From an uncultured delta proteobacterium (GTDB taxonomy: Bacteria > Myxococcota > Myxococcia > Myxococcales > Myxococcaceae), in NCBI GenBank assembly GCA_963731795.1, contig CAVSWU010000003.1, forward strand, positions 838,216 to 902,215: DNA of 64,000 bases, in the 5' to 3' direction. A program made the translations under genes and the position numbers. Below, one piece after another: positions 8,466-34,454 of this stretch (its first letter is position 1; each line of letters opens with the position of its first letter). The notes under the pieces are model-generated. The model made no database searches and was not told the origin of the DNA. It worked only from the letters and a program-made list of their open reading frames with translations.

Positions 8466-8522
8466 AAAGCCGGGCCGCGCCCTAGCAGCGCCACCGCGGA
8501 GCGTCAAGCATCCGCGGACTCC

Positions 8523-9761: not shown

Positions 9762-11572
9762 CTACTCCTCCGTCTTCAGGACCGCCAGGAAGGCTTCCTG
9801 AGGGATCTCCACCGAGCCCACCTGCTTCATACGCTTCTTGCCCTCTTTCTGCTTCTCCAGCAGCTTGCGCTTACGGCTGATGTCGCCACCGTAGCACTTG
9901 GCGAGCACGTTCTTGCGCATGGCGGAGATCGTCTCTCGGGCGATGATCTTCGCGCCGATGGCCGCCTGGATGGCCACCTCGTACATCTGCTTGGGGATGA
10001 CTTCCTTGAGCTTCTCGCACACCTCGCGGCCGCGCTGGTAGGCGCGCTCGCGGTGGACGATGACGCTCAGGGCATCCACCGGCTCGCCGTTGATGAGGAT
10101 GTCCAGCCTGGCCAGCTCCGCCTCCACGTAGCCGGCCAGCTCGTAGTCGAGGCTGGCGTAGCCGCGCGACACGCTCTTGAGCTTGTCGAAGAAGTCGAAC
10201 ACCACCTCGGCCAGCGGCATCTCGTACGTCACCTGCACGCGCTGGCCGCTGGAGCCCAGGTACTTCATGTCCTTCTGCACGCCGCGCCGGTCCTGGCACA
10301 GCTTGAGGATGGCGCCCAGGTGATCGTTGGGCACGTGGATGTGGCAGGTGAGGATGGGCTCCTCGAACTTCTCGATGTTCTGCACTGGCGGCAGCTTGGC
10401 TGGGTTGTCGATGAGGAGCGTCTCGCCCTTGCTGGTGGTGATGCGGTACACCACCGAGGGCGCCGTGGTGATGAGGTTGAGGTTGTACTCGCGCTCCAGG
10501 CGCTCCTGGACGATCTCCATGTGCAGCAGGCCCAGGTAGCCGCAGCGGAACCCGAAGCCCAGCGCCGTGGAGGACTCGGGCTCGTAGGTGAAGGCCGAGT
10601 CGTTGAGCTTGAGCTTGGCCAGCGCGTCGCGCAGGCCCTCGTACTCGGCGGAGTCCACCGGGAAGATGCCGCTGAACACCATGGGCTTCACTTCCTTGAA
10701 GCCCGGGAAGGGAGCGTCCGTGGGGCGCGCCTCCTCGGTGACGGTGTCACCCACCTTGGCGTCCTGCAGCTCCTTGACGTTGGCCACCAGCACGCCCACC
10801 TCGCCGGCCATCAGCTGCTGCACGGGCCGCGAGAAGGGGCTGAACACGCCCAGCTCCTGCACCTCGAAGACCTTGTTGTTGCTCCACAGCTTGATCTTCT
10901 GCTTGAGCTTGAGCGTGCCCTCCAGCACGCGCACCAGCGTCACGACGCCCCGGTAGTTGTCGTACCAGCTGTCGAAGATGAGGGCCTTGAGCGGCGCGCT
11001 CGGCTCACCCCTGGGCGGCGGAATCCGTTCGACCACCGCCTCGAGGATGTCGTGGATGCCGATGCCCTCCTTGGCGGAGGCCGGCACAGCCACGGACGCG
11101 TCGATGCCGATCACGTCCTCGATCTCCGATCGGGTGCGCGCGACGTCCGCGCTCGGCAGGTCGATCTTGTTGATGACCGGGATGATCTCCAGGTTGTGGT
11201 CCAGCGCCATGTAGACGTTGGCCAGCGTCTGCGCCTCGACGCCCTGGCTGGCGTCCACCACGAGCAGGCGCCCTCGCACGCGGCCAGCGAGCGGCTGACC
11301 TCGTAGGCGAAGTCCACATGCCCCGGCGTGTCGATGAGGTTCAGGACGTACTGCTTGCCGTCCTTGGCCGTGTAGTTCATCCGCACGGACTGGGCCTTGA
11401 TGGTGATGCCCCGCTCACGCTCGATGTCCATGTTGTCCAGGAACTGAGCCTGGGCCTCACGCTTGGTCAGCGTCCCCGTCTTCTCGAGGAGGCGGTCCGC
11501 CAGCGTCGACTTCCCGTGGTCGATGTGGGCGATGATGCAGAAGTTGCGAATGTGGGCGTTCTCAGCCGGCAT
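9762..11572 (-). CDS. lepA: Elongation factor 4 (LepA), split by a 1-nt deletion near 11263-11268.
   Basis: N-terminal ORF: [22 protein letters not shown]...[26 protein letters not shown] second frame continues [22 protein letters not shown]...; the expected GCGCTG reads GCCTG. Confidence 0.85.
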
Positions 11573-19785: not shown

Positions 19786-19809
19786 CGGCCGCGCCGCGGA
19801 AAAAGGGAG

Positions 19810-19883
19810 TGGCCCCGGCTGGAATCGAACCAGCGGCCTGCGGTTTAGGAAACCGCCGCTCTATCCAACTGAGCTACGGGACC
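19810..19883 (-). tRNA. tRNA-Arg (anticodon CCT).
   Basis: Minus-strand GGTCCCGTAGCTCAGTTGGATAGAGCGGCGGTTTCCTAAACCGCAGGCCGCTGGTTCGATTCCAGCCGGGGCCA folds into a cloverleaf. The 7-bp acceptor stem includes one G-U pair. The anticodon loop is TTCCTAA. Confidence 0.85.
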
Positions 19884-20084: not shown

Positions 20085-22214
20085 TCAAGGGTGCGCGATG
20101 AGCAGCAGGGTCGGGGCGCGCGTCATCACACAGTTCAGCGCCTGCCGGAGCGTCTCGGGGTCCAGCGCGGCGAAGCTCTCATCCAGGATGACCAGGTCCG
20201 CCCCCTGGAGAATGGTCCGCGCCACATAGATGCGGCTCTTCTCCCCATGCGAGAGCTGCCAGCCGGTCTCCCCCACCATCTGCATCATGCCTCCCGGCAT
20301 CCGGTCGAGCAGCGCCCCCAGGCCCAGCTCCCGGCAGATCGCCTCTGCTTCCTCGAGATCCACGGTCCGGGGAGGCCACTGCCGGCCCAGCAGCAGGTTG
20401 AAGGCGATCGGTGCGGAGAGGATGTGGTTCTCATGGAACTGGGGCGCGGACGCCACGTGGCGGCGCCAGCCCACGAGCCCCAGCGTGGGCTTGTCCAGCC
20501 CGTGCAACAACAGCAGCCCCTGGCTGGGTGCACGCAGGCCCGCGAGAATGGAGCCAAGCGTGGACTTGCCACTCCCGGACGCGCCCTCGAGCAGGAGCCG
20601 ATCGCCGGCGCGAACTTCCAGGCTGCAGTCGCGCAGCACGGGGCTCGGTCGCCCGGCATGCTGGAACGTGAGCGACTGCGCATCGAGAACGGTCTCCTCC
20701 GGCACACTTCCCTGGCGCGGAGAGGCCGCGAGCGCCGCCGTGGTCGTCACCTCAGCGCGCGCCGTCGCTCGCTGGAGTGGAGCCACCTGCTCCCAAGCCG
20801 CGGCGGCGCCCAGGAGGTCCGGTAACCCCGCGACGAGCAGTCGGAAGGCACGAAAGGCCAGCAGGAGCCCCCCGAGCGCAAGCGCGAGCCCAACCGGTTG
20901 AGTCCTCCCCTCGACGAACGCGTGCCCGAGCGTGGCGACGGCTACCACCAACCAGCCGCGCGGCACCAGGACCACCATCCAGGCGTACATCCGGTCCAGC
21001 CTCCGAGACGCCTCGAGGTATTGCTCAAGCGCGAGGTCATCGGCCCGGTACCAGCGCTCCTGGGCTTCCTGAGCCACGCGGGTCCGGTGACCCGCCATCT
21101 CCTCCACCAGCCCATGGGTCATCGTCATGCGGATGCGTGTCCACAGCTGGCGCTGCCGCATGTAGCGCACCGACAGCAGGACGGTCAGTCCCACCCAGGC
21201 GAGCAACCCCAGGTTCTGCGCCCACCCGTACGGTCCGAGGCCGAGCACGACTGCCGCCATGCCGAGCTCGACCATCGCCACCACACAGACGAGCCCGCCC
21301 CCGACGGTGAGCGTCTCGATGGCATCGGCCTCGATGACCCGGCCGAGCAACCGCCCTGCCCCCTCATGTCGTATCTCGCCCGGATCGAGCAGCAGTGCCC
21401 CGAACAGCAGGCGCTGCTTGAGCGCGCTGCCCAGCTCGATTCCCATGAGCCCCGCGAGCCAGCTGGAGGCAATCCGGAACGGCAATGTACAGATGAGCAG
21501 CAATCCCCAAGCGACCAGCCAGGACAGCTCGAGGTTCCCTGACAGCACGCTCCGTCCCACCACCCACCAGGAGAACAGGAGCAGGGCGTACTCGGCGGCG
21601 CGCGCGAGCAGGAGCACCGCCAGATGACGGCCCAGCCGCGCCAGGGAGAGCTGCCCTAGCAGTCCGGCGCCGGGTTGCCGGCGGAGCAACCAGCACCCCC
21701 GCAGCACGGTGCCCCCGAGTTGATCGCGGAGGATTGCGCGGCGAGAGCGGGCACGCTGGCGCTCAGGAACGTCGGCGCTCTCGAGCACGACGTCGACCGC
21801 GGGCAGCAGCGGCGCCTCGACAATCTCGCAGAAGGCCGAGCGTACCACCTCCACGTCAACCTCCACCCTCTCATCCTCCGTGGTGCGGAGATGGACCCTG
21901 CCGCGGCGGCTCCCCACGAGCACGAGGAAGCGCGGCTCGGGGCCGAAGAGCCGCACAATGGAGGGCCCGGCATGGCGCAGGAGTGCCTCCACATCCTTGT
22001 AGCGAGCCTCTGCGTACTCGGCCTCGAGGCCCAACCAGCTCGCGGCGCCCTCCATCCAGCGCGCCAGCGCAAGGCCCCCGGGCTGAACAAGGTCAGCGGC
22101 GGGAGCAGGCAGCCCCGTGGTACGCACGGGAAGCCCTGCCGCTCGCACGAGGACCTCTATCGCCTCACCCAGGCGGTGGAGGGGCCAGCACGCCTCCGGC
22201 GGAAGGACGCTCAT
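20085..22214 (-). CDS. ABC transporter with fused permease and ATPase, and a ~180-aa N-terminal accessory domain (NHLM/bacteriocin-exporter partner type).
   Basis: Six predicted TM helices followed by LLLEGASGSGKSTLGSILAGL...LSHGEKSRIYVARTIL...LVILDESFAALD (Walker A, signature, Walker B). Its ATG overlaps the upstream gene's stop (ATGA). Confidence 0.8.
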   Translation of the reverse strand: MSVLPPEACWPLHRLGEAIEVLVRAAGLPVRTTGLPAPAADLVQPGGLALARWMEGAASWLGLEAEYAEARYKDVEALLRHAGPSIVRLFGPEPRFLVLVGSRRGRVHLRTTEDERVEVDVEVVRSAFCEIVEAPLLPAVDVVLESADVPERQRARSRRAILRDQLGGTVLRGCWLLRRQPGAGLLGQLSLARLGRHLAVLLLARAAEYALLLFSWWVVGRSVLSGNLELSWLVAWGLLLICTLPFRIASSWLAGLMGIELGSALKQRLLFGALLLDPGEIRHEGAGRLLGRVIEADAIETLTVGGGLVCVVAMVELGMAAVVLGLGPYGWAQNLGLLAWVGLTVLLSVRYMRQRQLWTRIRMTMTHGLVEEMAGHRTRVAQEAQERWYRADDLALEQYLEASRRLDRMYAWMVVLVPRGWLVVAVATLGHAFVEGRTQPVGLALALGGLLLAFRAFRLLVAGLPDLLGAAAAWEQVAPLQRATARAEVTTTAALAASPRQGSVPEETVLDAQSLTFQHAGRPSPVLRDCSLEVRAGDRLLLEGASGSGKSTLGSILAGLRAPSQGLLLLHGLDKPTLGLVGWRRHVASAPQFHENHILSAPIAFNLLLGRQWPPRTVDLEEAEAICRELGLGALLDRMPGGMMQMVGETGWQLSHGEKSRIYVARTILQGADLVILDESFAALDPETLRQALNCVMTRAPTLLLIAHP

Positions 22215-24896
22215 GAGGTGCGCTCCTTCTCAATAGGCCGGCCGTCCACCATCCGCAGCCGGCGCCATGCGGCACTCGCCCAGAGCTCCTGGCGGACCTG
22301 CGCCTCGGTCTCCAGCAGGGCGCGATAGCGGGAGCCCTCGCGGGCCGCGAGCACCGTGGGAGGCCCATCCTCGATGATGCGCCCCTCGTCCATCACGACG
22401 ACGCGATCGAACCCGCGCGTCTCCGCGAGATCGTGGGTGATGCAGAGCATCGTCACCCCTGCCCACGCCTCGCGGCTCCGCGCGAGCAGCACGCGGCGAA
22501 GATCGCGGTCGAGTCCGCGGAAGGGCTCATCCAGGACCGCGAGCCGCACCCCCGGGCGCAGCAGTGCGCGGCCCAACCGCACGCGCTGCCCTTCTCCTCC
22601 GGAGACGAGCGCACCGCCCTCGCCCAGCGACGTCTGCAGCCCGTCCGGCATGGCCTCGAGCACCCGCTGCAGCTCGACAGCCTTGATGACACGCCCCACC
22701 CCCTTCAGGCCCTCGGAGCCATAGGTGAGGTTGTCGATGAACGAGCTGTTCCAGAGCTGCACCGCGGGCTCCACCCAGGCCGTCCGCCGCCGTAGCGCCT
22801 CGAGGCGGCCGGCGCTCAGCGGACGCCCATCCATCAGGACCCCTCCCTCACTGGCTCGATGCCAGCCGAGCACCAGGCCCACCAGCGTCGACTTGCCGGC
22901 TCCGGAGGCGCCCACGACGGCCACGTGCTCGCCGGGAGCAATCTCGAGCTCCACGCCGCTCAAGAGCGTATTCCCGGCCGCGACGACACTGACGCCCTCG
23001 AAGCGCAGGGCCACAGGCGCGTCCTCGGCATGGGGGAGCTCCTCGCCCCGCGCCTCTTCATCCGGCGCGCGAGGCTCTTCCAGCGCGCCAAGAGGCTCGA
23101 ACAACCGCAGGACGATGTTGCGGTGCCGCGGGAGCTGCCTGGCCAGGAGGGCAAGCTCCTGCCCGAGGGCCGGGATGTTCAGCGCCCAGAACAGGAGGAG
23201 CAGCGTGCCCGACATCCCCTCCATGTGGGGCAGGGCTCCGACGAAGAGCCACGTGGCGAAGCCCAGGGCGATGACCGTGGTGAGGACATCCGTCATCACC
23301 CCCGTCCGCAGCAGCGACTTCGCGGCCCTCGCCCATTCGACCAGCAAGCCCTCGTGCTCCCGCCGTACCATCCGCTCTGCGCCGTGCGTGCGGATGGCCG
23401 TCAGCCCGAGCAGCGCATCCAGGTAGAAGCGAGTGAGTCCTCCCGCATGGCTGCGGACACGCAGATCGCGCTCGATGAACGGCTTCTGGAGGACCAGGGG
23501 AACGAGCACGGCGGCGACCGCGGCGGCAATGGCGCGCGGAGCGCTGCTGGGATCGAGCCAGATGATGCCTGTCGCGCTCAGCACCATCTCCATGACCTGG
23601 CGCAAGAACCTGCCCGCGAGCTCCGGGGAGCTGGCGCAGCTGATGGCTGTTGTGGCAGCGCTCGGCCATGTCGGACATCGGGCGGCTCTGGAGGTAGCGA
23701 TCTCCAAGCCGGGGAATCTTCTGCACGAAGGCGATGCGCAGGCGTGCCTCGAGGTGGCGCCCGAGCCACTGGGTGCCCAGCACGAGGGGCACCTCGAGAA
23801 GGAAGAGGGCCATGAGGAAGGCGAGCAGCGCGGCGAGCGTACCGAGGCGCTGCTCGAACAGCACCAGCTTCGCTCCCACGTCGAGCATGCTCTTGAACAG
23901 GATGGCCAGGACTGCCATGGCGGCCGCCGCAACGGCGAAGCCGGCCGCGAGCATGGAGATGGTGAGGACACCACTCTGGCGAACCAGGCGCAGCAGCTCC
24001 CGGCCAGGACGCGCCTGCGGCTCGCGCAGCGCGGCCACCAACTCCGGAGAGCGCGGCTCCGGGACAGGCACGCCCTCGCCAGCCGCCTTCCGCGTGCCAC
24101 GGATGGTGATGAGGACCGCCCCGCGCAGCGACAAGCTCTCTCCCAGCTCCGGTGAGGGCGGCGCTGGCCGGACACACCAGAACATCTCGGGGATCACCTG
24201 GGTCTCGTCCCCCTCCCCCGCGGCCTCCCGGGCCGTGGACACGAGGTGCTCGAGCAGCCGAGCCGTCCTGGGACCTCGCGGCATGCCCCTCGATGCGGCG
24301 ATGGACTCGACCATCCGCACCGCGGCGTCGAGCCTCGCCGTCCCCCTCCACCCGGGCTCCGCCATGGCCGCGTCGATCAGCCTCGACCCTTCGTCCGCGA
24401 GGCCAACGCGGCGGCACCGCTGCCGGAGAACCCGCAGGAACGCGGGCGCCGCCGCGAAGGCCGTCCAGCTCGGCACCTGGATGAGCGAGGTGTGGACATA
24501 GACATCCTTGAGGAGTTCCTGGCAGGTGGTCCAGCGGCGGCCCGATGCCGGATCCATGAGCTGGATGAGAGGCCCCAGTCGCTTCCAGAGCACGACGAAG
24601 TGCGGGGCTCCGCTGGGCAGGCGCACGACAAGGATTGCGGGGATCGCCTCGGCCTCGTGGAGCAGGAGGTGATCGACCGGAGTCATGAACTGCTCGGCAT
24701 CCAGCCCGAGCTCGAGCGCGACCTCCTCGATGGTGTCGATGGATGTCCCATCGACGTCTGTCTGACAGGCCTCGCGCAGCCGGCCGTAGCTCACGTGAAC
24801 GCCCCACCCCTCGAGCAGGCACTTCAGCGACGCCGGGCCGCAATCCATGGCCGAAGTCTGTACTACCTCTGGAGCGAGCACGTTTCGGCGCATCAT
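22211..24896 (-). CDS. Peptidase-C39-domain ABC transporter (bacteriocin/RiPP-type maturation-secretion protein), frameshifted by 1 nt near 23623-23628.
   Basis: N-terminus: VVQTSAMDCGPASLKCLLEGWGVHVSYGRL...HFVVLWKR (C39 Cys/His). TM region, then VVGASGAGKSTLVGLV...LVSGGEGQRVRLGRAL...LAVLDEPFRGLD. The two halves are in different frames, joined at ...SHQLRQLP|ELAGRFLRQVMEM across a cccc run. Confidence 0.8.
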
Positions 24897-24902
24897 GGGT
24901 CC

Positions 24903-26081
24903 TCAGGCTCCTGTGCCACCACTCGCCTGACGCCTCTCGAGCATCCGGCCAGCGGCACGAAGGACGAGTTCCGCGGGCGAGGCTCGCTCCACCTGCACCT
25001 CCACTGAACCTGGCAGTCCATGCTGCAGGGGGATGGCAGGCGGCGCATGCCCCACGATGCGCAGCTCCACGCGCACCTTGCCATCGCGGACCTCGCTGCC
25101 GACACTCTCCACGAAGAGCTGCAGCATTCCGTACTCGGCCCATGGAAATCCGTCCAAGCGCAGCCGCGCCTGCTGACCAGGCCGAATGCGCCCGAGCGCC
25201 ACGTCCGGCGGAAAATCGGCGGTGACCTGCAGCCCTCCGGGTGGAACGACTGCGCTCAGCCGGAGCCCCTTGGTCACGACGGAGCCAGGCTGGAGCACCA
25301 CAATCTCCCCCAGCTTGCCGCTCGCGGGAGCCCGGATGCTCCGCAGCTCGATGGCGTGCTGCAGCGCCTCGATGTCCGCCTGCGCCTGCGCCTGCTGCCC
25401 GCGAAGCAGCTCGAGCTCACGTGCAAGCTTGGCGAGGTCCGTCTCCAGCTCCTCTCGCTTGAGGCGGTTCTCCGCGTCGATGCGGCCGACCCCCTCCTTC
25501 CAGGCCTTGGCATCGGCGCCCTGCTGCCGTTCCTCGGCGGTCATCCTGTCGCGCTCGGCCACCGAGATCATCCCCTTCTCCTGGAGGATGGCGGAGCGCT
25601 CTGCCTCGGACTGGGCGAGCCTGGCCCGCGCCGTGGCGCCCTGCTGGCGAGCGCGCGCCTCCGCGAGCTGCGTTCGCGCGACCCGCTCGTGCTCAGCCAG
25701 GGTCCGTGTCTGTGCCTCGACTTCCCGCTCGAGCAGTCCGTGCTGCGATGCCAGGCTCTCCACGAGCTTCCGCTTGGCGGCCAGCTCAATCTCGAGCGCC
25801 GCAGTATCGAGCCGGACGAGCACCTCCCCTGCCTCGACCTGCCTGTCGAGCGCCAGGGCGGATGACACCACCTTGCCGTCGACCTCCGACTCGATGGGGT
25901 GCACCGCCCCCCCCACCTCGACCCTCGCATCCGAACTCACCGCATAGACGGAGATGCGGAAGATGAGAAACCACGCGCCCCATACACCGCACAGCAGCAC
26001 GGCAATGACGAGCCACCGGCGGTAGCGGTGCGCCCCGTCGGCGGCGAGGGAGCGCAGGGAGCGATGGAATGGTATCGACAT
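24903..26081 (-). CDS. HlyD-family membrane fusion / secretion protein.
   Basis: N-terminal TM (WLVIAVLLCGVWGAWFLIF), a long coiled-coil (LEIELAAKRKLVESLASQHGLLEREVEAQ...), and a C-terminal β-barrel region (IRAPASGKLGEIVVLQPGSVV). Confidence 0.8.
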   Translation of the reverse strand: MSIPFHRSLRSLAADGAHRYRRWLVIAVLLCGVWGAWFLIFRISVYAVSSDARVEVGGAVHPIESEVDGKVVSSALALDRQVEAGEVLVRLDTAALEIELAAKRKLVESLASQHGLLEREVEAQTRTLAEHERVARTQLAEARARQQGATARARLAQSEAERSAILQEKGMISVAERDRMTAEERQQGADAKAWKEGVGRIDAENRLKREELETDLAKLARELELLRGQQAQAQADIEALQHAIELRSIRAPASGKLGEIVVLQPGSVVTKGLRLSAVVPPGGLQVTADFPPDVALGRIRPGQQARLRLDGFPWAEYGMLQLFVESVGSEVRDGKVRVELRIVGHAPPAIPLQHGLPGSVEVQVERASPAELVLRAAGRMLERRQASGGTGA

Positions 26082-26090
26082 ACCCGCAGC

Positions 26091-27647
26091 TCAAGAAGCA
26101 CGCTGCTCCGCGGAGCGCGCCGGGGTCATGGACGGTGGAGGAACCTTCGGCAACACCCGGAAGAAGCGCTGCTCGCCCCGCCGGTAGTACGCCAGCAGGT
26201 CATCCCAGGCGCGGTAGTTGAGCTCCAGGACCAGGAGCATGTAGCCCATGGCCAGGCGCTGGACCGCGGGAGAGACCGTCTTGACCTCCGCCATCATCAA
26301 CCGCGGGATGCTGGTGTGATGATACTTCTCGTTGAGGAGGATGTGCTTGTCGAGCGACATGAACTCCCCCACGAGTCGCTTGTACGGTTCGTCCAGCGGG
26401 GAGTCGGCACCGAGCACGCCTTCGGTGATGAAGATGGATACGATATAGGCGACAGGGTCCATCATCCCCAGTTGCGTGAAGACATCCACGTAGGCGTAGT
26501 GCAGCGGCAGCGGCTGAGCGCCCTTGATCTGCTCCTCGGACAGGCCCAGCTCGCGGCAACTCTGGTACTCGAGCGCGTCATGCCCGACCTCCTCCGCGTA
26601 GTACCGGAACGCCTTCGTCCGCAGAGAGGCATTCAGGCGCCTGGGCAGGAGCGTGGCGACAATCTCGGGGAAGCGGGTCGTCACGAGGTAGTCCTGCAGG
26701 TAGCGCCCGTGGACCAGGATGAGATCCGCATCCGGGCCGGAGAGTGCCTTCAGGTACTCGGGCTCGCCGACCCGGATTGACAGCTCACGGCCGACCCGCT
26801 CGATCTCCAGCATGAACTCGATGCCCGTCATGCACTCCCTGGGCTCGTACGGCGCCTCGCAAAAGCGCCGGGACCTGGAAGCATCCGTGCCGCTGACCAG
26901 ACACTCCGCGAGCCCGTTGAGATGGCGCTGCGCATCCACGGAGGAGTACGCGCCGCCTGCGAGCTCGCAGAGCAGCTCATTCAGGCCAGGCTGCGCTCCC
27001 GTCTCTGCCTCGAGCCGGCTCTGGAGCAGCAGCAGCGCCTGCGTGCAGCACACCAGCGACAAGGGCGCGAGCCCCCGCTGGTAGAGCCCCTGCACCGCAG
27101 CGATCTGCTGATAGAAGTTGCCCAGGCGCAGGATCTCCGGAGCGCTGAGCTGTCGGTGCTCCGTCGGCGGCAGCGGCTTCTGCAGGGGCAGCGTCCGCGA
27201 GAACTCCGACGTCAGCCCCGTGTAATGCGCACCGAGCGTGCGGACATTCGCGAGGAGCGCCTGCCGCCGTCCCGGTTCCACCTCCTGCAGCACCGCCTCG
27301 ACACAGGCGGCAATCGAGTCACTGAGCCGGGTCACCTCGGCATCCCGGCGGCTCTTGACCTCGTGCGCGGCATCCCGCAACAGGCCCAGGTAGTCCATCG
27401 TCGTGAGCAGCTCGCGCCAGTCAGCGTCCGGGGGAGCGGACAGGACCTCCTTCCAGGTGGGCGACCCGGGCTTCCGCAGCGCATCCAACCGGGTGACGAT
27501 GTCCTGAGGCGTCGTGGAGCTTCCGTGCTCGATCACGTACTCATTGGCCTCAGCCGTGACACACACCTCGCCGGTCGCCTCATCAATCCGCACGCCTGAG
27601 ATTGCAAGATACGGAGACTCATACTTCGTGATGCTCCAGGCTTCCAT
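26091..27647 (-). CDS. RRE (PqqD-like) domain fused to a heme-oxygenase-like (PF14518/iron-containing redox enzyme family) domain. This is the large paralog, 518 aa.
   Basis: N-terminus: ISGVRIDEATGEVCVTAEANEYVIEHGSSTTPQDIVTRLDAL...LLTTMDYLGLL (PqqD-like). C-terminus: AFRYYAEEVGHDALEYQSCRELG...EKYHHTSI, with E/H motifs shared with the two downstream paralogs. Confidence 0.6.
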   Translation of the reverse strand: MEAWSITKYESPYLAISGVRIDEATGEVCVTAEANEYVIEHGSSTTPQDIVTRLDALRKPGSPTWKEVLSAPPDADWRELLTTMDYLGLLRDAAHEVKSRRDAEVTRLSDSIAACVEAVLQEVEPGRRQALLANVRTLGAHYTGLTSEFSRTLPLQKPLPPTEHRQLSAPEILRLGNFYQQIAAVQGLYQRGLAPLSLVCCTQALLLLQSRLEAETGAQPGLNELLCELAGGAYSSVDAQRHLNGLAECLVSGTDASRSRRFCEAPYEPRECMTGIEFMLEIERVGRELSIRVGEPEYLKALSGPDADLILVHGRYLQDYLVTTRFPEIVATLLPRRLNASLRTKAFRYYAEEVGHDALEYQSCRELGLSEEQIKGAQPLPLHYAYVDVFTQLGMMDPVAYIVSIFITEGVLGADSPLDEPYKRLVGEFMSLDKHILLNEKYHHTSIPRLMMAEVKTVSPAVQRLAMGYMLLVLELNYRAWDDLLAYYRRGEQRFFRVLPKVPPPSMTPARSAEQRAS

Positions 27648-27674
27648 GGCACTGACTCCTCAAGCAAAGCATGC

Positions 27675-28670
27675 TCAGTCGAACACGCGGGGGATACGGC
27701 TCTCCGGCCTGCCGTAGTAATCGACGATCTGCCCATCCATGATGACCAGGGACTCGACGAGGATGCCCATGTGGAGCATGACGATCCGTTGCTCCTCGTC
27801 CGAGACGCTCGGGACCTCGGCGAACAGGACTTCGCTGATCTCCTCGTGGTCGCCGTCCTTGTTGATGAAGGCATGGTCGAGGATGGGCTTGTGGAATGCC
27901 TCCGGCAGTCCAACCTCCACGCATCGCTTCTTGAATGCCTCGTGGAACTCCTCGCTCGTCTCCTCGAAGAGGAAGAGGGCCGCCTTGAACGAGAGCGGAT
28001 GCTGGCGGGCGTACACCCCTAGCGAGGAGCAGAGGGTGAACGTCATGGGCAGTGGCACCAGCCGGTCCAGCTCCTTGCGCCCGATGCCCACGGCGGCCAG
28101 CGAGCGCTCGATGAGGCGGTCATGGTGGAGCTCGGACACGAAGAAGTCCTGCAAGGTGCTCAGCGTCTTCCTCGTGTCATGGTGCGACAGCGCGGGGGCC
28201 AGCAGCCCCGGGCACATGCGAACGATGTGGTAGTACTCGAGCACGTAGCCGATGAGCTGCTCGCGGCCCAGGCTGCCATCCACCAGGCCCTGGTAGAACG
28301 AGCGGGCGCTGTACTTGCGCTTCGCGCGCTCCATGAAGCGCTGCAGCTCCCGGTAGAACTGCGCCCCGCGCTTGGCCTTCCGCGGCTGGGTGGACGTCTC
28401 GGTGAGCAGGCCCAGGCGATCGAGATCCCGGCAGATCCGGCCGACCTCCCTGGAGAGCGCCGGCAGCCTCGTCGAGAGCTCCTCCAGGGAGTTTCCTCCA
28501 CGCTGAAGCATGTCGAGCAGGCGCACCGAGTCCGTGCGCGTCTCCGGCGCCAGCTCGAGCTCGTACTCCTCGTCGCGGTACTGGAGGACGACGATACCGT
28601 CCGTGCTCGTCCGCATCGTGACCGCCTCACGCAGACGCGGCTGTTGGAAGAAATTAGTCGTTACAGTCAT
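27675..28670 (-). CDS. RRE (PqqD-like) domain fused to a heme-oxygenase-like (PF14518-type) putative di-iron oxidase, paralog B.
   Basis: N-terminus: GIVVLQYRDEEYELELAPETRTDSVRLLDMLQRGGNSLEELSTRL...ICRDLDRLGLL. C-terminus: LEYYHIVRMCPG...FVSELHHDRLIERSLAAVGI...FEETSEEFHEAF...ILDHAFINKDGDHEE. Confidence 0.65.
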   Translation of the reverse strand: MTVTTNFFQQPRLREAVTMRTSTDGIVVLQYRDEEYELELAPETRTDSVRLLDMLQRGGNSLEELSTRLPALSREVGRICRDLDRLGLLTETSTQPRKAKRGAQFYRELQRFMERAKRKYSARSFYQGLVDGSLGREQLIGYVLEYYHIVRMCPGLLAPALSHHDTRKTLSTLQDFFVSELHHDRLIERSLAAVGIGRKELDRLVPLPMTFTLCSSLGVYARQHPLSFKAALFLFEETSEEFHEAFKKRCVEVGLPEAFHKPILDHAFINKDGDHEEISEVLFAEVPSVSDEEQRIVMLHMGILVESLVIMDGQIVDYYGRPESRIPRVFD

Positions 28671-28703
28671 GGTCGCCTCGAAGGCAGCAGCGCTGCCCCG
28701 GAA

Positions 28704-29696
28704 TCAGATGGCCGACAACCGGCGCACGAGCTCCTCCGCACCCGTCTTGGGGGAGTAGAACTTCCAGATGGCGGTGTAGAAGTCGTCGTACATCTCGACG
28801 AACAGCCGCATCTCCCGCCGCAGCCGCGCCATGGTCTCATCATCCACGAAGGGGATCTCCGCGAAGAGGAGGCGTGTCAGGTTGCCGTGCTCTCCCTTGC
28901 GGTTGATCTCCGAGTGGTCACGCATCGGCTTGATGAACCCGGGGGGCAGCTGGGCCTTCTTGCAAGCCTCGATGAAGAGGTCCTCCTCGGGGTCCTTGCC
29001 CTCGAGCACCCCCAGCGTGGCGAAGAAGAAGAGGGGATCGCTGGCCGCCCAGTACGAGAGCGCATTGCACAGCGCCAGCGTCTCGGGCAGGGGCATCATG
29101 TCCTGCACGTCGGCGCGGCTGAGCCCGAGCGCGAAGATCGCCTTGATGATGATCTCGTCGTGGCCGTACTCGCTGCAGTAGAACTCGTTCATCAGCTGGC
29201 GGACCCGGGTGTTCGGGATGTAGGGCAACACCGGGGAATCAAAGAGGCTCTCGCGGAACAAGAAGTGGTAGTTCTCGATGGCAAGGCCATAGAAGGCCGT
29301 CCTGGGACAGCCGACCGGGTCCTCCAGCAGGTGGGTCCAGAAGATGTTGCGGTTGATGCTCTTCTCCATCAACGCGTTGGCGAGGTCCTCGAGCTCGAGC
29401 AGCGCCTGGGAGCCCGTGCGAAGCTCGAGGGTGCTCGCATCGTCGAGCAGTCGGCAGCGCTCCAGGTCCTCCAGCAGGCTCCCGAAGCGCTGCCGCTGGT
29501 CCGTGTCCAGCCCTCGCTGAATATCGCGGACCGTGCGTCTCCCATCCAGCTGCTTGAGAAAGCCATGGATGTCTTCAGTGGACGAGCCCTCGGGCTCCAG
29601 GGCGAACTCCACCCCATCCCGGGCCAGCGAAAGCTCGGCGTCTGTGATTGAGACCTCGCCAATCAGACGAGGGCGAGAGTCAGGTGACTCGAACAT
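28704..29696 (-). CDS. RRE (PqqD-like) domain fused to a heme-oxygenase-like (PF14518-type) putative di-iron oxidase, paralog C.
   Basis: Start at MFESPDSRPRLIGEVSITDAELSLARDGVEFALEPEGSSTEDIHGFLKQLDGRRTVRDIQ (PqqD-like). Then AIENYHFLFRES...EFYCSEYGHDEIIIKAIFALGL...MRDHSEINRKGEHGN. Confidence 0.65.
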   Translation of the reverse strand: MFESPDSRPRLIGEVSITDAELSLARDGVEFALEPEGSSTEDIHGFLKQLDGRRTVRDIQRGLDTDQRQRFGSLLEDLERCRLLDDASTLELRTGSQALLELEDLANALMEKSINRNIFWTHLLEDPVGCPRTAFYGLAIENYHFLFRESLFDSPVLPYIPNTRVRQLMNEFYCSEYGHDEIIIKAIFALGLSRADVQDMMPLPETLALCNALSYWAASDPLFFFATLGVLEGKDPEEDLFIEACKKAQLPPGFIKPMRDHSEINRKGEHGNLTRLLFAEIPFVDDETMARLRREMRLFVEMYDDFYTAIWKFYSPKTGAEELVRRLSAI

Positions 29697-29776
29697 GGTG
29701 TCGCTCTCCCTTGATGTTGAACTCGAGTGGCCGCGGTGGATGGGTGACACAGTCCATACACGTCTGGCGACCCGCC

Positions 29777-29802
29777 CCGGAGCAGTGAGCTCACCGCTCC
29801 GG
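29777..29802 (-). promoter_or_regulatory. Strong RNA hairpin in the 128-nt spacer between the peptide gene and the first modification-enzyme gene, an attenuator or processing site candidate.
   Basis: The mRNA strand CCGGAGCGGUGAGCUCACUGCUCCGG forms an 11-bp stem (one G-U pair) with an AGCU loop. It is GC-rich with no U-tract. Confidence 0.5.
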
Positions 29803-29823
29803 GACGCTTTCCACCTGGGACAA

Positions 29824-29991
29824 CTACAGGTGCACTGCGATGAGAGCACCCGCCATCACGCCCGTCTTCAGGCGGATCTTCAGAGCGCGATGCTCCGTCA
29901 CGACCTCCTGTTTGAGCTCGGTCGCGCTGCTCTCCTTCCTGGCCTCGGTTTCGGTCGCCATCGTTTCCTCCTGGTCTGCGTTCTTCTGCAT
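29824..29991 (-). CDS. Candidate RiPP precursor peptide (55 aa; 45 aa if translation starts at the second ATG, 29961).
   Basis: MQKNADQEETMATETEARKESSATELKQEVVTEHRALKIRLKTGVMAGALIAVHL. Both ATGs have Shine-Dalgarno sequences (GGTGGAGG, AGGAGG). The N-terminus is charged and helical, leader-like. The C-terminus is hydrophobic, with Gly/Ala and one His. It is co-directional with the RRE enzymes and the exporter. Confidence 0.5.
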   Translation of the reverse strand: MQKNADQEETMATETEARKESSATELKQEVVTEHRALKIRLKTGVMAGALIAVHL

Positions 29992-30196
29992 CGTGCCTCC
30001 ACCTTGGAAGCACACCTCGATTGATCCGCGAGGATTCGAATGTGACGCCCTGGGAGCAGAGTTGCTTCTTGTATGACGGGCGGCCATGCGGGCACCGATC
30101 CCCGAAGGCTCCGCGAGCACCTGGAGCAGCATGGGTGGAAGCTTCTCGGGGAGATCTGGGTTGAGCGCGATATGAGCCCGCGATAGGAGCCGCCGG

Positions 30197-31363
30197 ATGA
30201 GACAACCCACCATTGGAATACTGGCCGGCATGGGGCCGAGGTCCACGGCCCCCTTCATCGACCTGGTGATAACAGAATGCCAACGTCAGTACGGCGCGAC
30301 AGATGACATCGACTTTCCGAAGATGATGGTCTGCTCGCTGCCGACCCCGTTCTACCCGGAGCGCCCCACCGACCATGCCGCGATGGAAGCCACCCTGCGC
30401 ACAGGGCTCCAGGACCTGGCGCGGACCGGGGCTGACTTCATCGCCATCCCCTGCAACACGGCACACATCTACTACCCGCAGCTGAAGGACAGCATCGATA
30501 TCCCGCTGTTGAACATGGTCAGGCTGGCGCTCGAGGCCATTCCCGAGTCCGCGAGGTCCATCGCGCTCATCGCGGCGCGCCCCACGGTCGAGGCTGGCAT
30601 CTACCAGGAGGGCCTCCGGGAACGCGGCTGTCAGGTAGCCGATGTGGACTGGCAGCGAGAGGTCGATCAGCTGATCGGTGCGACCAGGACCTTGAGGGAT
30701 CCTGCCCTGTTCCGCTCACGCTGGGGCGAGCTGGCACGACGGGCGAAGCTGGCCGGGGCAGACACGCTCCTCATTGCCTGCATGGACCTGAGCGCGGTCA
30801 GGCTCCACCTGGACACCGAGCTGCGGGTCCTGGATGCGGGGCAATGCCTGGCTCAGGAGATCGTTGCCCAGTGGCTGTCACGCCGCGACCGCGACGCGGA
30901 GGATCCGGCACGTCACGAACGTCATCGCGGGCCCTACAGGGTGACCTCGGATCCAAAGCAACTCGATATCGCGGCGATACACGCCTACCTCACCCGCTCC
31001 TACTGGGCCGAGGGAATCACGAGAGAGACAGTCGCGCAGTCGATCCAAGCTTCCCTGTGCTTCGGGCTCTTCGACAATGCTCGCCAGGTGGGCTTCGCGC
31101 GGGTCATCACGGATCATGCAACCTTTGCCTACCTGTGTGACGTCTACGTCCTCGAGGAGTACCGCGGGCAGGGCCTGGGGACGTGGCTGGTGAAGAGCGT
31201 CACCGAACACCCGGCGCTGACAAGGGTTCGCCGGTTCCTCCTGGCCACCCGGGATGCGCATGGGCTGTACTCGAAGTTCGGCTTCTCCCCCCTGCAGGCG
31301 GCCGGCCGGTTCATGGAGATCTTCCGGCCAGAGCTCTACAAGCCGGCACGTAGAAACCAATGA
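30197..31363 (+). CDS. Asp/Glu racemase-family domain fused to a C-terminal GNAT N-acetyltransferase domain.
   Basis: N-terminus: IGILAGMGPRSTAPFIDLV...IAIPCNTAHIYY...LLIACMDLS (the two Cys motifs of Asp/Glu racemases). C-terminus: VGFARVITDHATFAYLCDVYVLEEYRGQGLGTWLVKSV (GNAT Q/RxxGxG/A). Confidence 0.7.
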   Translation: MRQPTIGILAGMGPRSTAPFIDLVITECQRQYGATDDIDFPKMMVCSLPTPFYPERPTDHAAMEATLRTGLQDLARTGADFIAIPCNTAHIYYPQLKDSIDIPLLNMVRLALEAIPESARSIALIAARPTVEAGIYQEGLRERGCQVADVDWQREVDQLIGATRTLRDPALFRSRWGELARRAKLAGADTLLIACMDLSAVRLHLDTELRVLDAGQCLAQEIVAQWLSRRDRDAEDPARHERHRGPYRVTSDPKQLDIAAIHAYLTRSYWAEGITRETVAQSIQASLCFGLFDNARQVGFARVITDHATFAYLCDVYVLEEYRGQGLGTWLVKSVTEHPALTRVRRFLLATRDAHGLYSKFGFSPLQAAGRFMEIFRPELYKPARRNQ

Positions 31364-31407
31364 CCAAGGTCTCAGTGAATGCTCCCAGGACTCCGCGGCA
31401 GCGGGCC

Positions 31408-31803
31408 TCAGGGCTTTCGCTGGGTAGGGCCTCCCGGGGCCGCTGGAGCCTGCTGAGCTCCCCGTGCGCTCATACAGCGCTCCATCATCTGTGCCATGCG
31501 CTGTACGTCAGCGACCTTGGCAGGGTCCTTCGCGGTGAAGCGCAAGACGGCTCCCGAGGGGGTCTGCTCGACCGCCACGTCCGCCATGCCGCTCATCGGG
31601 CAGCTCATCCCCGCCTGCCCGTGCATGCCCCCCCCGTGCATCATTCCGCCCTCCCCCATCATGGGACAGGTGCAGTCCGTGCCCTGCTGACTGGCCGTGC
31701 CTTGTTGGGGCTGAGGAGCGGGAGCCTGGCTTGCGCCCTGGCTGAAGGCAGGCAGCCCGGTGATCAGTCCCGCAATGATGAACGCTCGATGGTGCGGCTT
31801 CAT
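31408..31803 (-). CDS. Secreted Met/His/Gly-rich putative metal (Cu) binding protein.
   Basis: MKPHHRAFIIAGLITGLPAFSQG (signal peptide) ...CTCPMMGEGGMMHGGGMHGQAGMSCPMSGM. The MxxM/MH clusters resemble periplasmic Cu(I) binders. Confidence 0.55.
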   Translation of the reverse strand: MKPHHRAFIIAGLITGLPAFSQGASQAPAPQPQQGTASQQGTDCTCPMMGEGGMMHGGGMHGQAGMSCPMSGMADVAVEQTPSGAVLRFTAKDPAKVADVQRMAQMMERCMSARGAQQAPAAPGGPTQRKP

Positions 31804-31964
31804 GAGTTCCTCCCTGGGTGAGCACCACTCCTCCCGGAAGGTGGCTACGGCTCCGCAAAATGGCGAGCGGACCCCAGGGCGGGCTCTCCACGTCAACGCC
31901 CTTCCCCATGGCGGCGGTTGCCAGCCCCCGCTCGGTACCCCACCTTCCTCCTGGTACGCCGACC

Positions 31965-34454
31965 ATGCGAATCCCTATTCCCGTCCGCCGCCTCCCGGCT
32001 CCGCTCGATGACGCCCATGGCCTCGACGCCGATGCGGTGCGCGAGAGGCGCGCGCGCTACGGGCCCAATGACGTGCTGGCGCGGCCTCGACGCTCGGGGC
32101 TCGCGGTGCTGCGCGAGACGGCCGGAGACCCGATGCTCTGGTTCCTCGTGGGAACGAGCGCGCTCTACCTCGTGCTGGGAGAGCGAACGGAGGGGCTGGT
32201 GCTGCTGCTGGCCATGGTCCCGCTGCTGGGCATGGATGCCTTCCTGCACCGCCGGACGCGTGCCTCCACGGAGGGCTTGCAGAGCCGCCTGGCCGCGCAC
32301 GCCACGGTGCTGCGCGATGGGCGCGAGCAGCAGGTGCCCGCGGATGAAGTGGTCGTGGGCGAGCTGGCACGGGTAGAGGCGGGCGAGTACTTCCCCGCGG
32401 ATGGAGTGGTCCTGCGCGGCGACGGCCTGCAAGCCGAGGAGTCCTCGCTCACCGGAGAGTCGCTGCCCGTGCGCAAGCGGCCGCTGCCCCGCCTGCCTCC
32501 GGGAGAAGAGCCGGCGGTGGAGGGACAGCACTGGGGGCTGGCCGGAACGCGGCTCCTGACCGGGACGGCCTGGGTGCGCATCGTCTTCACCGGGCAGGAC
32601 ACGTTCTACGGGGCCATCGTGCGCTCGGCCACGCAGGGTGGGCATGCGCGCACGCCGCTCCAGCAGGCCGTTGCCCACCTGGTTGCGGTGCTGATGGGCG
32701 TGGCCGCCATGCTGTGCGCGATGCTCGCGTTCGTGCGCTGGCACCAGGGCTTCGGGTGGATGGATGCGCTGCTGAGCGCGGCGACCCTGGGCGTGGCGGC
32801 ACTGCCCGAGGAGTTCCCGGTGGCCTTCACCTTCTTCCTGGGAGCCGGCGTCTACCGGCTGGCGCGGCGACAGGCCCTGGTGCGGCGCGCGGTATCCGTC
32901 GAAAACATCGGCCGTGTCACCTGCATCTGCTCGGACAAGACGGGCACGCTGACGGAGGGGCGCCTGCGGGTGGCCAGCGTGCTGCCCGCGCCGGGCGTCC
33001 AGGCCGACGAGCTGCTGCGGACAGCGGCGCTCGCCTCACGCGAGGAAGGAAGGGATCCGCTCGATGCCGCGCTGCTCGAAGAAGCCGCGCGCACTCTCTC
33101 CGGCGCGGCCCGCCCGAAGACCGAGGCCACCTTCCCCTTCACCGAGGAGCGCCAGCGTGAGACGGCGGTGGTGGAAGACGCGGAGGGACTCCTGCTCGCC
33201 GCCGTCAAGGGTGCGCCAGAGCGGGTGCTGGGCCTCTGCACGCTGGGGGCCGAGGACCGCGTGGCCTGGGAGCAGCGCGTGTCAGCGCTCGCGGGCGAGG
33301 GGCGCAAGGTCATCGCGTGCGCGAGCCAGCCTCTGGAGCCCGCATCCTGGCGAGGCGGTGAGCCGGAGCGAGGCTTTCACTTCCTGGGCCTGATGGCCTT
33401 CGAGGATCCGGTGCGCCCGGGGGTGCCGGAGGCGGTACGGGAGTGCCGCGAGGCCGGCCTGCGCACGGTGATGGTGACGGGCGATCACCCAGCGACGGCC
33501 TTGGCGGTGGCGCGCAGGCTGGGGCTCGGTGGGGAGCGGCCCCAAGTCCTCACCGGCGAGGAGCTGGAGGCGCGGCTGCACGAAGGGCAGGTGCCGCACG
33601 TGGACGTGGTGGCCCGCGCGGTGCCGGCGCAGAAGTACGCGCTGGTGACGGCGCTCCAGCGGCAGGGCGAGGTGGTGGCGACCACGGGGGACGGCGTGAA
33701 CGACGTGCCCGCGCTCCAGGCGGCCGACGTCGGCATCGCCATGGGGGAGCGAGGGACACGCAGCGCGCGCGAGGTGTCCTCCATCGTGCTGCTGGACGAC
33801 GACTTCGGCACGCTGGTGCGGGCCATCGCCGAGGGCCGTCAGCTCTTCCGCAACCTCCAGGGATGCTTCCTCTACCTGCTGCTCATCCACATCCCACTGG
33901 TGACAACGGCGGCGCTGCTGCCGCTGGCGGGCTATCCGCTCCTGTACCTGCCCATTCACATCGTCTGGCTGGAGTTGATCATCCACCCCACCGCGATGCT
34001 GGCCTTCCAGGCTGCGGCGCGCCCGGGGCGCCTGGAGCCGATGCGGCACCAGGGCCCCGCGCGCTTCTTCTCGGCGGCGGAGTGGGCCACCCTCATGCTG
34101 GTGGGCGCACTGGTCACGGTGGGGCTGGTGTGGAGCTACGACCAGAGCCTGGGCGCGGGGCGCGACGTGGAGCACGGGCGCGCGGTGGCGCTGGCCTCGC
34201 TCACGCTCGCGAGCGCCGTCTTCGCGGCGGTGCTCACCGGGTTGGGGACACGCACGGCCCGCTGGGTCTGCGCGATGACGTTGGGAGGCTCGGTGCTGCT
34301 CATCCAGGTGGAGCCCCTGGCGTCCTCCTTGAGGCTGCACCCCCTGCATGCGGATGACTGGGCGCGCGTCGTCGTGCGCGTGGGGGTGGCCTCTCTCCCG
34401 CTGGTGCTCTCGCGCCTGCGCTGGAGCAGGGTCGCCACGCCTCGTCCGCCGTGA
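31965..34454 (+). CDS. Cation-transporting P-type ATPase (P2/P3-like, with a Cation_ATPase_N domain).
   Basis: LDDAHGLDADAVRERRARYGPNDV...ICSDKTGTLTEG (DKTGT phosphorylation site)...VMVTGDHPATA...GDGVNDVPAL. There is no heavy-metal CPC motif. Confidence 0.85.
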   Translation: MRIPIPVRRLPAPLDDAHGLDADAVRERRARYGPNDVLARPRRSGLAVLRETAGDPMLWFLVGTSALYLVLGERTEGLVLLLAMVPLLGMDAFLHRRTRASTEGLQSRLAAHATVLRDGREQQVPADEVVVGELARVEAGEYFPADGVVLRGDGLQAEESSLTGESLPVRKRPLPRLPPGEEPAVEGQHWGLAGTRLLTGTAWVRIVFTGQDTFYGAIVRSATQGGHARTPLQQAVAHLVAVLMGVAAMLCAMLAFVRWHQGFGWMDALLSAATLGVAALPEEFPVAFTFFLGAGVYRLARRQALVRRAVSVENIGRVTCICSDKTGTLTEGRLRVASVLPAPGVQADELLRTAALASREEGRDPLDAALLEEAARTLSGAARPKTEATFPFTEERQRETAVVEDAEGLLLAAVKGAPERVLGLCTLGAEDRVAWEQRVSALAGEGRKVIACASQPLEPASWRGGEPERGFHFLGLMAFEDPVRPGVPEAVRECREAGLRTVMVTGDHPATALAVARRLGLGGERPQVLTGEELEARLHEGQVPHVDVVARAVPAQKYALVTALQRQGEVVATTGDGVNDVPALQAADVGIAMGERGTRSAREVSSIVLLDDDFGTLVRAIAEGRQLFRNLQGCFLYLLLIHIPLVTTAALLPLAGYPLLYLPIHIVWLELIIHPTAMLAFQAAARPGRLEPMRHQGPARFFSAAEWATLMLVGALVTVGLVWSYDQSLGAGRDVEHGRAVALASLTLASAVFAAVLTGLGTRTARWVCAMTLGGSVLLIQVEPLASSLRLHPLHADDWARVVVRVGVASLPLVLSRLRWSRVATPRPP

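Follow-up and report, generated by a model that had tools for sequence, protein, structure and literature searches.

Three candidate RRE-fused heme-oxygenase-like oxidases encoded with a His-Leu-ending peptide in an uncultured myxobacterium

The stretch of DNA analysed here (the window) comprises 64,000 nucleotides of contig CAVSWU010000003.1, from an uncultured delta proteobacterium of the Myxococcaceae. It contains a minus-strand operon that opens with a short peptide gene, continues with three paralogous proteins (HDO-A, HDO-B and HDO-C), each combining a predicted recognition element (RRE) of RiPPs (peptides made on the ribosome and modified post-translationally) with a heme-oxygenase-like dimetal oxidase (HDO) domain, and ends with an exporter formed by a HlyD-family protein, a C39-peptidase ATP-binding cassette transporter (C39-ABC) and a second transporter of that type (ABC2). 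We propose, with a probability of about 0.8, that this peptide is modified by the HDOs under the guidance of its leader, in a RiPP-type pathway. The original prediction had already read the cluster in this way, and the reading is supported by the precursor, the hairpin behind it, the three RRE-HDO fusions, the C39/ABC/HlyD exporter and the co-occurrence of a GNAT gene. HDOs are a fast-growing family that oxidizes free amino acids and fatty acids in unusual ways, yielding, for example, alkenes, alkynes, nitriles, N-N bonds and azetidines. An RRE-HDO fusion, if our reading is true, would bring this chemistry under leader-peptide control and would represent a new post-translational modification with a programmable, gene-encoded substrate.

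The peptide and its constant position beside the enzymes carry much of the argument. A scan of one genome per species yielded 67 related loci, to which exact-protein look-ups added four, giving 71. HDO-A, HDO-B and HDO-C are consecutive and in this order in 64 of the 71, and a short open reading frame (ORF) with a His-Leu-stop end finishes 30-250 nt upstream of HDO-A in at least 63 of them, so that the peptide, as had been anticipated, is conserved in related genomes next to the enzymes presumed to modify it. The pattern [hydrophobic]x4-HL-stop is found in 71 of the 29,317 ORFs that a six-frame reading of the related loci gives, no fewer than 63 of these 71 lying directly upstream of HDO-A, and in one single ORF of the window; judged by these counts, the presence of an HL-stop ORF upstream of HDO-A is not due to chance. 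In the window the peptide ends in ...RALKIRLKTGVMAGALIAVHL-stop, and its gene, which is annotated in the source assembly, has a coding profile (GC of 0.62/0.38/0.84 at codon positions 1/2/3). Both possible starts, for 55 and 45 aa, are preceded by a GGAGG-type Shine-Dalgarno sequence, and the start in the closest relative corresponds to the 45-aa form. The codons for the conserved residues differ synonymously between relatives.

A comparison of 31 distinct 16-residue tails shows no invariant positions other than His(-2) and Leu(-1), and the consensus preceding them is (V/I)-K-P-x-x-x-R-P-(T/I/V)-L-(I/M/V)-(A/P)-(V/I/A). The precursors fall into three types: short basic peptides ending in ...VVVKPRxxRPVLIPVHL, peptides of ~59 aa ending in ...DLYINTGTLGGKHFL...PTLIAIHL, and a myxobacterial type ending in ...KIRLKTGVMAGxxxAVHL. 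Scans of Pfam and NCBIfam assigned neither the peptide of the window nor the other types to a family, and no NHLP or Nif11 leader was recognized. Arg-Pro is conserved at positions -9/-8 in most of the non-myxobacterial precursors, and the Ala-Gly of the myxobacterial peptides stands at or beside this position (-8/-7 in the window, -10/-9 in locus L045). Arg-Pro might represent another processing site, for clusters without a protease gene.

Far from being peculiar to myxobacteria, the cassette is found in many phyla, and in most cases no peptide exporter accompanies it. Full-length homologs of HDO-A, at 44-90% identity, are found in many taxa, and when 1.84 billion representative proteins were searched with a profile, 404 clusters (50% identity) matched at E <= 1e-10. 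The loci belong to Sorangium, Burkholderia, Paraburkholderia, Sphingomonas, Chromobacterium, Pseudomonas, Vibrio, Enterovibrio, Photorhabdus, Klebsiella, Dyella and Pedobacter, to Lysobacteraceae, and to metagenome-assembled genomes of Actinomycetota, Chloroflexi, Acidobacteria, Eremiobacterota and others. The closest relative is a metagenome contig, its HDO-A being 90% identical to that of the window, and the Sorangium proteins are 74-79% identical to their counterparts in the window, so that the source may be a Sorangium-like myxobacterium. The Sphingomonas loci are minimal, with the peptide, the three enzymes and nothing further; in L072 (Sphingomonas sp. PB2P19, 7737-11494), a 60-aa HL peptide and HDO-A, -B and -C occur without exporter, aminotransferase or GNAT, and a PF07995 gene (GSDH, glucose/sorbosone dehydrogenase) lies two genes upstream. 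Five Burkholderia loci (L002-L004, L013 and L070) have in addition a fourth, divergently transcribed HDO of 335 aa with a weak winged-helix match (for example L002 8040-9047, minus strand), as well as another small conserved ORF, 68 aa long and ending in ...FMTMCG (for example L002 9394-9600, plus strand), and the two may constitute a second enzyme-peptide pair.

The assignment of the three paralogs as RRE-HDO fusions is supported by predicted fold and profile homology, rather than by PF05402. The PF14518 model (iron-containing redox enzyme), which the original prediction had invoked, does match the enzymes, with HDO-A above (36.6 bits), HDO-B at (28.9 bits) and HDO-C below (25.3 bits) the gathering cutoff of 28.9 bits; weak matches to TENA/PQQC models of Pfam are also present, the predicted structures, of HDO-A and HDO-C, display the heme-oxygenase-like helical fold, and the motifs quoted for these proteins (IENYH, SEYGHDE, ELHHD and DH..H) were all found. 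For the N-terminal domains, which had been described as PqqD-like, the profile of that family (PF05402) gave no match even at E <= 10, and the sole related hit was a weak one to PaaA-like_N (E = 0.17). The best structural match of the modelled N-domain is nevertheless an RRE solved with its peptide, and the similarity includes the beta-sheet. HDO-A and HDO-B align over residues 1-327 and 1-329 in hhalign with a probability of 100%, and the N-domains of the three paralogs are homologous to one another in profile comparisons (96.6-97.2%; 96.6-96.8% for HDO-C against the other two). Topology and profile homology thus support the N-domain of HDO-C as an RRE too, and the placement of an RRE before the HDO domain holds for the three proteins on these grounds, although not on that of the PqqD model. 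NCBIfam release 20 holds no model for either the peptides or the enzymes. HDO-A and HDO-B probably act together, since the matches of the profile search include natural single-chain A-B fusion proteins of 691-705 aa (P0153, P0165, P0182 and P0184), which suggests that the two function as a heterodimer.

The best sequence match of the HDO domain in the PDB, at low similarity (E = 1.5e-4), is MboA, the HDO acetylenase of mangotoxin biosynthesis (PDB 9ypi; PMC13185094). The substrate of MboA is a tripeptide that is desaturated at its C-terminal residue and bound to Fe1 through its carboxylate (PMC13185094), and a carboxylate likewise ligates iron in UndA, AetD, HrmI and PolF. Its metal ligands are E86, H89, (D90), E143, H172, D176 and H181 (PMC13185094; the numbering of the PDB chain is offset by 25 from that of the paper, which we follow). 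In the same order, the equivalent residues are E176, H179, D180, E232, H261, N265 and H270 in HDO-A, E180, H183, D184, E236, H266, N270 and H275 in HDO-B, and E353, H356, D357, E409, H435, N439 and H444 in HDO-C, where the assignment of D357 is based solely on the window sequence and the consensus alignment. The tallied ligand positions are invariant or at least 95% conserved (among 64-67 family members), the position of D184 in HDO-B being either Asp or Glu (59/8). Three His, two Glu and the alternative Asp (D180 in HDO-A, D90 in MboA) are therefore kept in the three paralogs; the canonical third carboxylate, Asp176 of MboA, is replaced by an invariant Asn in all of them, and the metal site may differ in this respect from that of canonical HDOs. 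A further conserved pair, E141-x-x-H144, is present in HDO-A only. Because of the conservation of the ligand positions, all three paralogs look metal-binding and catalytic. The possibility that they are ordinary enzymes of the PqqC/TenA type is disfavored by the diiron ligand set that their sequences appear to retain, a set that, to our knowledge, is missing from the PqqC and TenA families.

Between the peptide gene and the enzymes there is a hairpin, with the predicted 15-bp stem, within a 91-nt stretch that folds at -44 kcal/mol (z = -3.3; none of 200 shuffled sequences folds as well). A stem-loop past the peptide stop is seen in most of the related loci, with z < -2 in 33 of 62, and it is probably a partial terminator or a transcript-stabilizing element. 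A short ORF followed by a strong hairpin is also the classical layout of an attenuator, and the peptide could in principle be a regulatory leader, with HDOs that act on free amino acids, as most characterized HDOs act on these or on fatty acids (PMC13108848), and with an N-terminal winged helix that binds DNA or a small ligand, in line with the missing PF05402 match. We regard this explanation as highly improbable. The ORF ends in a single His and a single Leu codon and has no run of regulatory codons, while its last ~16 residues are conserved across phyla with synonymous changes; the N-domain model most resembles an RRE that was solved with a peptide, the C39 leader peptidase/exporter covaries with a putative cleavage motif of the peptide, and MboA, the closest relative of solved structure, itself acts on a peptide.

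This covariation links the peptide to the exporter. The set of HlyD, C39-ABC and ABC2 is found only in the window and in seven related loci (L074, L001, L005-L008 and L045), which are exactly those whose peptides contain TG[VI][MA]AG 7-9 residues from their end; C39 exporters are absent with all the other peptide types. Matches to C39-ABC in L009, L010, L042 and L047 were discounted, as they cover the ATPase domain only. The C39 domain of the window has the motifs QTSAMDC19GP and APHFVVL, and the peptide shows Ala-Gly where C39 processing expects a motif of the GG type. The original prediction had likened the exporter to the NHLM type. The double-ABC/HlyD architecture bears out this likeness, but membership in these families does not follow: the scores (38 bits against a cutoff of 156 for TIGR03794, 148 against 853 for TIGR03796, with 59 for its N-terminal part, and 97 against 709 for TIGR03797) miss the cutoffs ~4-7-fold, and the peptide is not of the NHLP/Nif11 type. 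The N-terminal ~170 aa of ABC2 contain no Pfam domain. A degenerate C39-like domain in this region was considered and is not supported, the match being marginal and local (E = 0.027, around PRFLVL / PHFVVL).

In the window, a surplus C in the run ctCCCCgg at ~23626-23630 (the DNA reads ctCCCCggagctc) splits C39-ABC into two overlapping ORFs, at a point downstream of the peptidase domain. When the intact 894-aa ortholog of Sorangium is used in tblastn, its residues 1-424 match one frame and residues 425-894 another, the switch falling between LRQLP and ELAGRF. The lesion is either a recent pseudogenization or a homopolymer error of the assembly, and because of this 1-nt frameshift either export is defective in the window or the assembly is wrong at this point. 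It is conceivable that the cluster has decayed, C39-ABC being a pseudogene and nothing being made or exported in this genome. The split gene itself would speak for this, as would its intactness in every relative examined (893-914 aa, with 893 aa in the closest one) and the low GC of the biosynthetic part, which suggests a foreign origin. All the other genes, however, are full-length and align end to end with their homologs, a single base in a C homopolymer is a typical assembly error, no further lesion is present, and GC at third codon positions is high in both halves of C39-ABC. We consider decay of the cluster unlikely.

Outside the exporter, the accessory genes vary between loci and bear on the nature of the final product. 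The racemase-GNAT gene, transcribed divergently from the operon, encodes an Asp/Glu-racemase domain (~residues 1-232) and a GNAT domain (~residues 240-388, ~30914-31363). In 21 distant loci, including L007, a gene linked to the cluster matches the GNAT part (~residues 240-385) at 43-55% identity, and in the closest relative the counterpart is a GNAT-only gene of 162 aa, while the racemase part is limited to L001, L005, L006 and L045, all of them myxobacterial-type loci. The claim that this gene is part of the cluster is therefore borne out by the co-occurrence of GNAT and not by the racemase, which is confined to those few loci; as far as these comparisons go, the conserved accessory is the GNAT domain. 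A class-III aminotransferase gene lies directly 3' of HDO-C in 31 loci, suggesting that a carbonyl is generated in those pathways, and the related loci often contain an ATP-grasp enzyme of the L-amino-acid-ligase type, an MFS or EamA exporter and GNAT, with an added GMC oxidoreductase in Burkholderia. These recurrent accessories fit the export of a product that is either a modified peptide or an amino acid. An apparent GNAT-aminotransferase fusion in the Sorangium locus L007 was rejected, as the GNAT similarity and the aminotransferase ORF are in different reading frames; the 34% match of the N-terminus of this ORF to the window is likewise an alternative-frame artefact.

Such a set of genes raises the possibility that the peptide is a mere carrier, as in the scaffold- or cofactor-type pathways of pyrroloquinoline quinone (PQQ), mycofactocin, pearlins and daptides, from which the oxidized His-Leu or Leu would be cut off as a small molecule (an antimetabolite, a metallophore or a redox cofactor), leaving no mature peptide product. 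The combination of a PqqC-like fold with a PqqD-like domain, the restriction of invariance to the last two residues, the small-molecule logic of the aminotransferase, ATP-grasp, MFS/EamA and GNAT genes present in most loci, the GMC oxidoreductase of Burkholderia and the bare peptide-A-B-C arrangement of Sphingomonas are all compatible with it. Against it, the window and its seven closest loci carry a peptide-cleaving C39 ABC exporter that covaries with the AG motif and points to a short peptide, no homolog of the aminotransferase, ligase or MFS genes of the other loci was found in the window, and equivalents of PqqA, PqqB and PqqE are absent. As an account of the cluster studied here, we find this alternative possible, although not probable; for clusters of the Pseudomonas and Chromobacterium types it may well be correct, and it overlaps with a RiPP-type pathway up to the release step.

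In the leader-guided pathway that we favor, the 45/55-aa precursor, the product of a conserved coding gene, would be translated and its conserved, strand-forming segment ALKIRLKT would be bound by the RRE domains of HDO-A, HDO-B and HDO-C, as the RRE fold suggests. The C-terminal His-Leu would then enter the dimetal site with the free Leu carboxylate on one iron, as judged by homology and by its strict C-terminal position; such an anchoring would explain why His-Leu stands at the very end of the peptide. The three enzymes, HDO-A and HDO-B probably as a pair, might perform successive O2-dependent oxidations of Leu and/or His, with desaturation, hydroxylation and oxidative decarboxylation as candidate chemistries. 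In the myxobacterial version, the C39 domain would cleave after the Ala-Gly of TGVMAG, a site proposed because the AG motif and the C39 exporters co-occur perfectly, and a modified heptapeptide derived from ALIAVHL would be exported by the two ABC proteins and HlyD. The GNAT domain, to judge from its co-occurrence, may acetylate the product or an intermediate, for tailoring or for self-protection.

Some points weigh against this model. The heme-oxygenase-like fold also covers metal-free enzymes (PqqC and TenA), one canonical metal ligand is an Asn, and PF05402 fails to recognize the N-domains. The cluster contains no gene for a partner reductase, a protease is lacking from most clusters that are not of the myxobacterial type, cleavage at the candidate AG site would leave Ala or Pro in the P1' position, and C39-ABC is frameshifted in the window. 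For the more specific proposal of a carboxylate-anchored attack on the C-terminal Leu, the odds are in our estimation somewhat short of even. We lean, with less assurance than for the pathway as such, towards the broader view that these are the first leader-guided HDOs and the mark of a new and widespread class, in which three RRE-fused dimetal oxidases turn a carboxylate-anchored His-Leu into a pharmacophore that some lineages (myxobacteria) export as a short peptide and others (Pseudomonas, Chromobacterium, Photorhabdus and Paraburkholderia) process to a small molecule with aminotransferase, ligase and GNAT. The occurrence of the cassette in culturable genera (Pseudomonas fluorescens, Burkholderia, Chromobacterium, Photorhabdus, Sphingomonas and Sorangium) makes the product, be it an antibiotic, an antimetabolite or a metallophore, directly testable, and the invariant His-Leu-stop tail offers a simple handle for genome mining.

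The features of the locus are collected in Table 1.

Table 1. Features of the cluster and its immediate surroundings, in window coordinates
Feature	Position	Strand	Remarks
tRNA-Arg(CCT)	19809-19883		201 nt beyond the last operon gene (ABC2)
ABC2, second ABC transporter (permease + ATPase), 709 aa	20085-22214	-	PF00005 + PF00664; active peptidase domain not recognizable
C39-peptidase ABC transporter (C39-ABC)	22211-24896	-	two ORFs, 23058-24896 and 22211-24175; PF03412 1.6e-18, PF00005
HlyD-family membrane-fusion/adaptor protein, 392 aa	24903-26081	-	PF13437 1.3e-11; syntenic in Sorangium-type loci
HDO-C, 518 aa	26091-27647	-	predicted RRE-like N-domain (~10-96), extra helical region (96-260), HDO domain (~270-495)
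HDO-B, 331 aa	27675-28670	-	full-length paralog of HDO-A (predicted RRE + HDO)
HDO-A, 330 aa	28704-29696	-	predicted N-terminal RRE (~residues 7-90) + heme-oxygenase-like dimetal oxidase domain
Stem-loop, 15-bp stem	29773-29806	-	starts 18 nt past the peptide stop codon; without U-tract
Precursor peptide gene	29824-29991	-	two possible starts: first ATG (55 aa, MQKN...) or ATG at 29961 (45 aa, MATE...)
Divergent intergenic region, 205 bp	29992-30196		presumed promoters of the operon and of the racemase-GNAT gene (by position only)
Racemase-GNAT fusion, 388 aa	30197-31363	+ (divergent)	PF01177 1.3e-27 + GNAT models

The tight minus-strand operon running from 29991 to 20085 and opening with the 45/55-aa peptide is present as described in the original prediction, but the listing of ORFs with their codon-position GC gives seven co-directional genes and not the nine that had been counted. 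From the peptide to C39-ABC, the intergenic gaps measure 127, 33, 27, 9 and 6 nt, and a 4-nt overlap follows. The window has a GC content of ~69%; the segment from 26 to 32 kb, with the peptide, the three HDOs and the racemase-GNAT gene, is lower (0.645-0.655 versus 0.69-0.72 in the flanks), the transporter genes (0.70) resemble the flanks, and the biosynthetic part may thus be of mosaic or horizontally acquired origin. A scan for sigma-70 consensus sequences found no promoter in the 205-bp divergent spacer, a scan for intrinsic terminators was uninformative, and Rfam gave nothing in the window beyond the two tRNAs. The adjacency to tRNA-Arg(CCT) that had been pointed out is real, but no signature of integration is detectable: the cluster sits on the tRNA's 5' side and a search for att-like direct repeats was negative, so that the tRNA was ruled out as an integration site and is treated as a mere neighbor. 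The flanking genes are different in each related Sorangium locus. On the other side of the cluster, a 153-aa ORF at 31360-31821 (plus strand) overlaps the racemase-GNAT stop codon and is probably not a real gene, because its codon-position GC is atypical (0.75/0.58/0.68); the next convincing gene (31818-34454) resembles by sequence a cation-transporting P-type ATPase, with a DKTGT motif.

Among known systems, MboA is the nearest to the enzymes of the cluster. They have in common the ExxHD ... E ... Hx3(D/N)x4H layout, and MboA acts, as proposed here, on the C-terminal residue of a peptide with its carboxylate on Fe1. MboA, however, has no RRE, its substrate is a ligase-made tripeptide and not a ribosomal precursor, and there is one enzyme, served by a reductase of its own (MboB), in contrast to three paralogs without a reductase; its Asp176 is moreover an Asn in the cluster enzymes. 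Within RiPPs, a heme-oxygenase-like protein, VarO of the thiovarsolin cluster, is genetically required for a dehydrogenation (PMC6511847), and the thiovarsolin paper is the sole citation for ribosomal peptide modification in a 2026 review of HDOs. VarO differs in being an accessory enzyme of a YcaO/TfuA thioamide pathway, with no RRE fusion reported (PMC6511847); the thiovarsolin precursor consists of repeats that end in Arg, and an action of VarO on the precursor itself is not established.

The PQQ pathway is set apart by PqqE, a radical S-adenosylmethionine (SAM) enzyme, and by PqqB: Pfam scans of all the operon genes revealed no radical-SAM or PqqB-type domain, and the peptide has no Tyr and lacks the Glu/Tyr motif. 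PqqC is cofactor-free and is not known to have the His/Glu ligand set, and the natural PqqCD fusions (PDB 5vrd) have the order C-D instead of an RRE first. Mycofactocin, the daptides and the AviCys peptides resemble our proposal in that their defining chemistry takes place at the C-terminal residue or residues of a ribosomal peptide. In daptide clusters an oxidative step is paired with a class-III-type aminotransferase, as in the 31 related loci, which provides a precedent for a carbonyl route; the three systems are known, however, for radical-SAM, flavin or NAD(P) enzymes and not for HDOs, and their C-termini are Val-Tyr, Thr and Cys. The export systems of NHLP and Nif11 peptides share the three-gene architecture of HlyD, C39-ABC and a second ABC protein without active peptidase, but the proteins of the window score far under the cutoffs and the precursor has no NHLP or Nif11 leader.

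In the searchable full-text literature, outside of which most subscription journals lie, neither an RRE-HDO fusion nor a precursor ending in HL is described, VarO being the only link; together with NCBIfam release 20, this agrees with the earlier statement that no characterized RiPP class is built on RRE-HDO fusions. The pathway follows the logic of known RiPPs (precursor, RRE, tailoring and C39 export), and its catalytic fold belongs to a known superfamily. What appears to be new is the combination of RRE and HDO, the cassette of three paralogs, the invariant His-Leu terminus and the change of an Asp ligand to Asn.

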